This document shows positions 1 through 710 of a DNA stretch of 64,000 nt, piece after piece. The translations under genes and the position numbers were made by a program. Every line of letters starts with the position of its first letter. Position 1 is the stretch's first letter. The stretch is taken from the NCBI RefSeq assembly GCF_003790525.1, contig NZ_CP033635.1. One strand, 5' to 3'. The stretch comes from Escherichia coli. Its GTDB lineage: Bacteria > Pseudomonadota > Gammaproteobacteria > Enterobacterales > Enterobacteriaceae. The notes beneath the pieces were generated by a model. It was not told the DNA's origin. It saw only the letters and a list, made by a program, of their open reading frames with translations, and did not search any database.

Positions 1-457
1 CTTTGTCTTCCATTTTGCGTAAAGGAATCAGTAGATCCATGGTTGTGATCTCGTTAATTGGCCTTTTACCAAGAATGGGGAAGATGTGGTTTTCCAGGTC
101 TTTTAAGACTTTTTGCGCGTGCAATTCGCTCCAGCCCTTTTTCCGGCTGTGCCATTCTCTGGCAACGTCTTCAAAAAGCACTATTTGAGGTTTTGGTGTG
201 TGCAGTGGGTCAATGCCTTTAGCCAGGCTCGCCAGATATTCATCACGAGCGTTCCTTGCCTGTGCAAGTGTTACGGCAGGATAAATGCCTAAAGCTCGGG
301 TCGTTTCTTTACCGTTGATAACCTTGCGAAAGCGCCAGTATTTTGAGCCGTTGGGGTGAACATAGAGATACAGGCCTTTCCCGTCACGAAGTTTTTTAAT
401 TTTATTGTTGTCCTTATCTGGTTTGGCGTTACGTACAGCTATATCAGTCAGTTTCAT
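1..457 (-). CDS. P4-type tyrosine integrase, N-terminal part (partial; continues beyond window start)
   Basis: Hand translation of minus strand from ATG at 457-455 gives MKLTDIAVRNAKPDKDNNKIKKLRDGKGLYLYVHPNGSKYWRFRK..., open to position 1 with no stop; typical arm-binding N-terminus of tRNA-associated integrases; lies just downstream of the argW 3' end, as intS does in K-12. Confidence 0.8.
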   Translation of the reverse strand, partial: MKLTDIAVRNAKPDKDNNKIKKLRDGKGLYLYVHPNGSKYWRFRKVINGKETTRALGIYPAVTLAQARNARDEYLASLAKGIDPLHTPKPQIVLFEDVAREWHSRKKGWSELHAQKVLKDLENHIFPILGKRPINEITTMDLLIPLRKMEDK

Positions 458-635
458 TATGTTGATCCTCCAGACGGGTACAAATAAAAATCGAACCAAG
501 CATACCCGCTTTTATACCCATTTTAATATGGGCTTCAGGCAAATTTAACGAGAGAAAATGAGACAATGGGAGATGTTTAACTCATTGAAAGTAAATGGAT
601 AATGGTTTTTTCTGAGAGGTTGCAAGAAGTTGCGA

Positions 636-710
636 TGGTGTCCCCTGCAGGAATCGAACCTGCAATTAGCCCTTAGGAGGGGCTCGTTATATCCATTTAA
701 CTAAGAGGAC
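636..710 (-). tRNA. argW: tRNA-Arg (CCU anticodon), argW-type
   Basis: Minus-strand sequence GTCCTCTTAGTTAAATGGATATAACGAGCCCCTCCTAAGGGCTAATTGCAGGTTCGATTCCTGCAGGGGACACCA, 75 nt, ends in CCA, anticodon loop CCTCCTAAG; matches recalled E. coli argW. Confidence 0.9.

Follow-up and report, generated by a model that had tools for sequence, protein, structure and literature searches.

Introduction

The tRNA-Arg gene argW is an integration hotspot, and its described occupants include the cryptic prophage CPS-53/KplE1 (PMC2951348), phage Kapi1 (bioRxiv 10.1101/2021.04.09.439263) and Stx phages (PMC8046923, PMC3519850). A variable argW-dsdCXA island was reported by Moritz and Welch in 2006, as cited in PMC2808357. 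P4 targets a different tRNA gene, leuX, at the 3' end of a tRNA-Leu; its int likewise lies beside the tRNA 3' end, and its core of about 10-20 nt overlaps the end of the tRNA, as at the locus described here. [quoted passage not shown]

The DNA analysed here is a 64,000-nucleotide stretch of an Escherichia coli chromosome, referred to in full as the window, which begins with part of an integrase gene next to argW. Positions 1-634 are very probably the attL-side, integrase-bearing end of a P4-related satellite-type element that was site-specifically inserted in the 3' end of argW in an SMS-3-5-like clone.

Methods

For the comparison of attachment sites, attL and attR of the elements in GF60, K_EC180 and TOE17 were aligned with the empty site of genome L014. 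A virtual attP was made by joining the two ends of the TOE17 element and was then searched for repeats. Among the relatives of the element were those reached through the exact 420-aa integrase, which is indexed in 1153 blocks of public assemblies; 10 of these places were read.

Results

The tRNA gene and the integrase reading frame

The following two genes were identified at the left end of the window:

1-457, minus strand: P4-type tyrosine integrase, first 152 codons (36%), from the open reading frame, Pfam and identity to GF60
636-710, minus strand: argW, tRNA-Arg(CCU), intact, from ARAGORN, Rfam and identity to K-12

ARAGORN detected a single tRNA gene in the 64 kb, a tRNA-Arg with anticodon CCT at 636-710 on the minus strand, where a first-pass annotation made from the letters alone had also placed it. 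Rfam RF00005 matched positions 639-710 with 63.4 bits against a gathering score of 29, and in alignment all 75 nt were the same as in K-12 argW. The int frame opens with an ATG at 457-455 on the minus strand, is preceded by a GGAGG ribosome-binding site eight bases upstream (466-470, cctcc on the plus strand), and remains open for 152 codons, up to base 1. Between the int start at 457 and the argW 3' end at 636 there is a gap of 178 nt, and both genes are on the minus strand, in agreement with the earlier description of a co-directional integrase about 180 bp past argW that runs off the window edge.

Residues 3-86 of the window integrase were matched by Pfam PF13356 (Arm-DNA-bind_3, formerly DUF4102; E 3.7e-26) and residues 95-151 by PF22022 (Phage_int_M; E 1.3e-16), the latter match being cut by the window edge. 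The NCBIfam PRK09692 integrase domain also matched the reading frame (E 6e-18), and the catalytic domain falls beyond base 1, outside the window. The 152 codons were compared with 13 alleles from other genomes, from which they differ by 1-8 synonymous and 0-1 non-synonymous changes: against 11 alleles the differences were 1-3 synonymous and 0 non-synonymous, and against two more distant ones the ratio was 8 to 1. With allele changes almost all synonymous, int is, on the evidence of its codons, a real gene under selection. A simple scan found no sigma-70-like promoter for int, and a promoter and terminator scan of 1-900 was empty on the int strand.

Assignment of the integrase

All 152 residues are identical to the start of the GF60 integrase WP_032353643.1 (420 aa). 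This full-length relative has arm-binding, central and catalytic domains, PF00589 included, which is the same domain architecture as in P4 Int, and the catalytic residues are kept: R239, K278, H342, R345, H369 and Y379 are invariant with both P4 Int and IntS. By direct comparison it was 53% identical to P4 Int over 417 aa (E 3e-155), and since it carries the same 152 residues, the earlier label of a P4-type integrase is justified. Further traits of P4-type integrases were seen here, namely the arm domain, the central domain, a core at the tRNA 3' end, int beside the tRNA and a P4-like pattern of arm repeats.

The comparison with K-12 intS, which had been proposed as a check, was run and gave 35% identity over 150 aa between the window fragment and IntS, so the enzyme is not IntS and the element is not CPS-53/KplE1. 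This result bears on a reading in which the DNA left of the window would be the K-12-type cryptic prophage CPS-53/KplE1 or a close relative of it, that is, an IntS-driven, P22-like and O-antigen-modifying element. In its favour, argW is the CPS-53 site in K-12, as the first-pass annotation had stated and the K-12 annotation confirmed, and the core of CPS-53, ATGGTGTCCCCTGCAG, overlaps that of the present element. Counted over 5426 complete E. coli genomes, an IntS junction at argW occurs in 1711, an empty junction of the OmpH type in 186 and this integrase in only 17-19. However, besides the low identity to IntS, DNA similarity to K-12 ends one base past argW, with none left of the tRNA, and gtr and torI are absent in the relatives with this integrase, save where a separate IntS prophage sits in tandem. 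A CPS-53-type prophage is therefore very improbable, and for the integrase itself this identity was rejected, on its 35% to IntS and the lack of DNA similarity past the tRNA; an IntS prophage in tandem further to the left is conceivable.

Junction with the SMS-3-5 backbone

Window 635-64000 was identical to SMS-3-5 (NC_010498.1) at 100.000%, with 0 mismatches and 0 gaps over 63,366 nt. The argW site of SMS-3-5 is empty, argW being followed directly by an OmpH-like gene, upaE, ipuA/ipuB and dsdC. In SMS-3-5 window 1-634 was not detected, this strain being outside the 19 records matched among the 5426 complete RefSeq E. coli genomes; the best match to window 1-635 in that set was 99.4%. The window strain thus differs from an otherwise identical clone by an insertion with its right edge exactly at 634/635, and the boundary is drawn with core chromosome from 635 onward and accessory DNA at 1-634. 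The earlier suspicion that the DNA left of argW is accessory holds good, because the chromosome from 635 to 64000 is that of SMS-3-5 and nothing is inserted at the argW of that strain.

Three draft or complete genomes with backbones 99.97-99.99% identical to the window also have an empty argW site. Look-ups by exact protein returned either other backbones with an occupied site or backbones like that of SMS-3-5 with an empty one. Between int and the core lies one further stretch:

458-634, strand not applicable: element-derived int-to-core intergenic region, integrase-proximal arm of attL, absent from empty-site genomes

SMS-3-5 and the other empty-site genomes, L014-L016, lack this region, which is 99.2-99.7% identical to that beside this integrase in 11 other genomes. 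Given 63 kb of identity to an empty-site strain, very little time can have passed since the gain here, or else since a precise loss in SMS-3-5, and an active recombination system is required in either case.

Full identity of the backbone to a published, insert-free genome would also be seen in an assembly or splicing artefact, with 634 nt of foreign DNA misjoined to an SMS-3-5 chromosome. Against this, the join lies exactly on the natural att core and the same junction sequence is present in at least 13 independent genomes, which a random misjoin would not reproduce; we regard an artefact as hardly credible.

Attachment sites and core

The alignment of attL, attR and the empty site defined two nested segments:

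635-644, strand not applicable: common core ATGGTGTCCC, the exact segment common to attL and attR
635-655, strand not applicable: extended imperfect att repeat, ATGGTGTCCCCTGCAGGAATC in attL and ATGGTGTCCC-TGCAGAAATC in attR of the relatives

The core overlaps the last 9 nt of argW, comprising the ACCA end and acceptor stem. The integrase-proximal junction reads ...AGAAGTTGCG on the element side and ATGGTGTCCCCTGCAGGAATC... on the other, running on into argW. At the far end the junction is constant in GF60, K_EC180 and TOE17, where an outside flank is followed by ATGGTGTCCC-TGCAGAAATCATCTTAATTA..., and only the outside flank varies:

GF60, outside flank of the far junction: the flank of the empty site
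K_EC180, outside flank of the far junction: the integrase-proximal end of an IntS prophage (tandem array)
TOE17, outside flank of the far junction: the dsdC-side flank, which in K-12 lies beyond the CPS-53 attR

A single, invariant boundary of the element combined with differing outside sequences is what site-specific integration leaves behind. Beyond ATGGTGTCCC, attR has a 1-nt deletion and a G-to-A change, both on the element side, and by its sequence the far end in the three complete genomes is a degenerate argW repeat. The crossover probably lies within the ten bases of ATGGTGTCCC, with attP carrying an imperfect mimic of the tRNA end.

A search for a direct repeat of the argW 3' end, which the first-pass annotation had suggested as a way to find attR, gave none within the window (20-mer, up to 3 mismatches allowed), as expected with attR lying off the window; the degenerate repeat was found in the three relatives instead. 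The 20-mer and 13-mer repeat searches missed the attR of GF60 because of the 1-nt deletion, and the site was found by reading the sequence. The excised attP junction had 0 matches in IMG/VR and 0 in JGI metagenome contigs.

Tandem arrays at argW were observed in both orders. K_EC180 (L017 8305-20635) has the satellite and then an IntS prophage, and L005 (1-11263) has a lambdoid or CPS-53-type prophage and then the satellite, with the integrase end of the latter joined to the end of the CPS-53-type prophage. Arrays in either order show that the satellite and the CPS-53 elements are independent, and their hybrid att sites show that the two integrases use overlapping cores.

Candidate arm-type sites

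The region between int and the core contains the following candidate sites:

476-484, minus strand: candidate arm-type integrase-binding site, inverted, TTTGTACCC on the minus strand, from a repeat match
502-524, plus strand: two tandem candidate arm-type sites, ATACCCGCTTT (502-512) and ATACCCATTTT (514-524), from pattern and spacing

The site at 476-484 matches the tandem TTTGTACCC repeats of the distal TOE17 end exactly but in inverted orientation, and lies 19 nt upstream of the int start; in P4 attP an inverted repeat is also found near the int start. The pattern RTACCCRYTTT occurs 3 times in the 64 kb, 2 of them at 502-524, with 0.23 expected by chance. The two sites there have the motif TACCCGTTT in common with the distal arm, and in the virtual attP of TOE17 the motif TGTACCCGTTTT / ATACCC(G/A)(C/T)TTT occurs five times. 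The tandem pair on the int side is 110 nt from the core, against 112 nt for the annotated pair of P4 attP, and the pair on the other arm of the TOE17 virtual attP is about 63 nt from the core, against 54 nt in P4 attP. The number, orientation and spacing of the arm repeats thus match those of P4 attP. The motifs are related, with TGT(A/G)CCC here as against ATGCCCCC in P4, whose arm motif (A/T)TGCCCCC(A/T)(A/T) is related to the motif here. From this agreement in arrangement, the candidate repeats are presumably sites bound by the integrase.

Content of the element in relatives

The gene order was constant over 10 kb in all 10 places that were read, nine of which adjoin yfdC. Reading from the integrase end, int is followed by an AlpA-type excisionase/regulator, an Icd-like protein and four small ORFs, then by a primase of 889 aa, a second tyrosine recombinase and Ogr/Delta, and finally by ORFs of 77 and 236 aa and a homologue of the P2-family major capsid protein. 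The complete copies (TOE17, GF60 and K_EC180) end with a MazE/PemK pair before attR, a toxin-antitoxin pair at the att-distal end. PHROGs and NCBIfam supported these gene annotations, and PADLOC assigned no family to the distal genes and unknown ORFs. Copies of the element differ in length: about 12.7 kb in TOE17, 15.3 kb in GF60, where an IS21 is inserted, and 11.0 kb in K_EC180, where an internal deletion has occurred. Four IMG/VR proviruses also show the element.

Recognisable homologues of P4 proteins in the relatives were int (53%), AlpA/ORF88 (34%) and Delta (39%). The match of the 889-aa primase to P4 alpha was fragmentary (E 9e-4 over 27 aa), epsilon had no match, and a Psu homologue was not found by sequence. 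For the 236-aa protein, relatives of about 240 aa were found down to 24% identity, and it is predicted to be all-helical (pLDDT 93.7). The best fold match of this model among 350,542 PDB chains was P4 Sid (7jw1_E, prob 0.97, TM 0.49 both ways, Foldseek E 0.08), with P4 Psu at rank 4. The statistics of this match are weak, and profile comparisons also gave weak support (hhalign E 6e-5, 64% probability; PDB hmmsearch E 0.045).

The capsid homologue is 33-39% identical to capsid proteins of the P2/186 type. In GF60 (L001 6174-7445) its N-terminus was observed to extend about 118 aa beyond the part matched by the PHROG and TIGR01551 profiles, and a tblastn alignment to some P2-like phages reaches back into the adjacent scaffolding-gene region; the extension could be a scaffold-capsid fusion. 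The second integrase of the GF60 element (L001 12059-13613) is 91.8% identical in DNA over 802 nt to integrases of P2-like phages, namely vB_EcoM-569R5 and a P88-like phage. It was also seen to be flanked by several copies of iteron-like repeats, CGGTTACAA / TTGTAACCGCTTTGCG, and together with these it may represent a helper-derived int-attP module that was captured, or else an origin of replication. A P4/P2-type cos was searched for by comparing joined P4 cos ends with the GF60 and TOE17 elements by short-word BLAST, which has low sensitivity, and only chance 10-11-mers were obtained; with no recognisable cos in the relatives, any packaging route and helper are putative.

Copies in other genomes show some decay, with the IS21 in GF60, the internal deletion in K_EC180 and an IS5 inside int in E94/E92. 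These cases bear on the possibility that only a degenerate remnant lies left of the window, either an integrase stub or a heavily deleted island. The insertions and deletions in some copies, the absence of the attP junction from the databases searched and the lack of a recognisable cos count against an intact element. On the other side, the flank is 100.000% identical over 63 kb to that of an empty-site strain, and a gain (or SMS-3-5 loss) so recent leaves little time for decay; the visible 152 codons encode the same protein sequence as a widespread allele; and an integrase-only stub was found in 0 of about 17 sampled copies. A remnant is therefore unlikely. The recent event, the conserved codons and the want of stubs among relatives favour an intact element at the window site.

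Other features of the window

A Septu type I anti-phage system of two genes was found at 17896-19894 on the minus strand, between smrB and a yfcO-like fimbrial adhesin gene, encoding PtuA (452 aa, PADLOC PDLC00271, E 2e-168) and PtuB (219 aa, PDLC00344, E 5e-95). In SMS-3-5, which also has the locus, its annotation is limited to an AAA ATPase and a hypothetical protein, and the pair is absent at this position in GF60. A 415-aa ORF rich in Asn and Asp is located at 2946-4193 on the minus strand, in a patch of low GC (31-38% compared with about 50% around it), and fills the slot between mlaA and fadL where K-12 has yfdF, of unrelated length. No Pfam or PADLOC family was assigned to this ORF, and the exact protein is widespread, being indexed in 1976 blocks. 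The fimbrial usher and chaperone region at 11400-15536 is about 75% identical to GF60, with flanks at 96-98%, and the sequence divergence indicates a divergent allele of a yfc-type fimbrial operon.

Discussion

Proposed mode of insertion

The preferred reading, an element inserted by its own integrase in the argW 3' end, can be set out as a sequence of predicted steps. The N-terminal domain of the P4-type integrase would bind arm-type repeats, including those at 476-484, 502-512 and 514-524, while its core-binding and catalytic domains would bind the core ATGGTGTCCC. Strand exchange would then take place between the chromosomal argW and the attP of the element, which imperfectly copies the argW 3' end. 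Integration of this kind would regenerate the tRNA, intact at 636-710, and would place int beside it and a degenerate argW 3' repeat at the distal boundary of the element. The predicted junctions of the two parental sites are AGAAGTTGCG-ATGGTGTCCC-TGCAGAAATCATC for attP and GGGGGATGATAA-ATGGTGTCCCCTGCAGGAATC for attB.

We infer the cargo left of base 1 from the relatives. It would consist of an element of about 11-15 kb (12.7 kb if uninterrupted) with the gene order of the sampled copies; beyond its attR, the SMS-3-5 backbone would resume with the OmpH-like gene and upaE. The attR is predicted to lie about 12 kb to the left of base 1, with the sequence ATGGTGTCCCTGCAGAAATC, and to adjoin the flank ...GCGAGGGGGATGATAA of SMS-3-5. 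The initial proposal that the window starts inside a mobile element integrated at argW is borne out by the exact att junction and the empty site of SMS-3-5. It can be refined, in that the element, as far as its relatives show, is probably satellite-like and about 12.7 kb long, not a full prophage or a pathogenicity island.

What is seen in the window is an ordinary, recently acquired tRNA-site element, and a P4-type integrase adjacent to a tRNA gene is commonplace in E. coli. The window strain and SMS-3-5 nevertheless are a naturally occurring pair, representing the states after and before a single integration and otherwise indistinguishable over 63 kb, which is convenient for testing the activity of the integrase and its AlpA partner.

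Classification of the element

The element family of the relatives is somewhat unusual. Judged by its gene content, the relatives' element scores at most int, alpA, delta and possibly sid of the seven components, and with at most four of seven it was not filed as a canonical P4-like satellite; it is best described as an atypical P4-related satellite. PICIs and capsid-forming PICIs were set aside, since the relatives lack small terminase, portal and head-tail genes and have Ogr/Delta and a Sid-like protein.

More tentatively, and with rather less than even confidence, the relatives might represent an undescribed branch of P2-parasitising satellites, with P4-type int and att, AlpA, Ogr/Delta, a Sid-like scaffold, their own gpN-like capsid where P4 has psu, and a helper-like second integrase. 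In that case the window would hold a very recent and still mobile acquisition, as the existence of the isogenic, empty-site SMS-3-5 suggests. Such an element, if the proposal is true, would fall below the 5-of-7 threshold of current P4-like detection models. No description of such a branch was found in the literature searched, which is not proof of its absence. The family joins P4-like hijacking genes with a P2-type capsid homologue of its own and, if functional, would be a variation on the exploitation of P2-like helpers.

Comparison with known systems

With P4-like satellites, the relatives share int, an AlpA/Vis homologue (of P4 ORF88), an Ogr/Delta zinc-finger protein and a primase, and they resemble them in the size of about 12.7 kb, in the 236-aa protein with its Sid-like fold match and in having a toxin-antitoxin pair distal to the integrase. 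They differ from them in that psu and epsilon are not recognisable and the primase is not orthologous to alpha, and they go beyond them in the P2-family major capsid homologue and the second, P2-like integrase (92% in DNA). Compared with P4 itself, the DNA behind the integrase in the relatives is without psu, epsilon, cI and a P4-type alpha, with weak similarity at most, the target is argW instead of leuX, and the sequence of the arm repeats differs too.

CPS-53/KplE1, with IntS and TorI, uses the same tRNA gene and an overlapping core, and IntS has an N-terminus of the Arm-DNA-bind_3 type as does the window integrase, but the two enzymes are only 35% identical and the cargo of CPS-53/KplE1 is entirely different from that of the relatives' elements. 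In GF60, the ipuAB-upaE part of the argW-dsdC region is located outside attR. Kapi1, the Stx phages and the argW-dsdCXA region share the hotspot, but these are full-size phages or a variable region of the chromosome, whereas the relatives show an element of the small satellite type at this locus.
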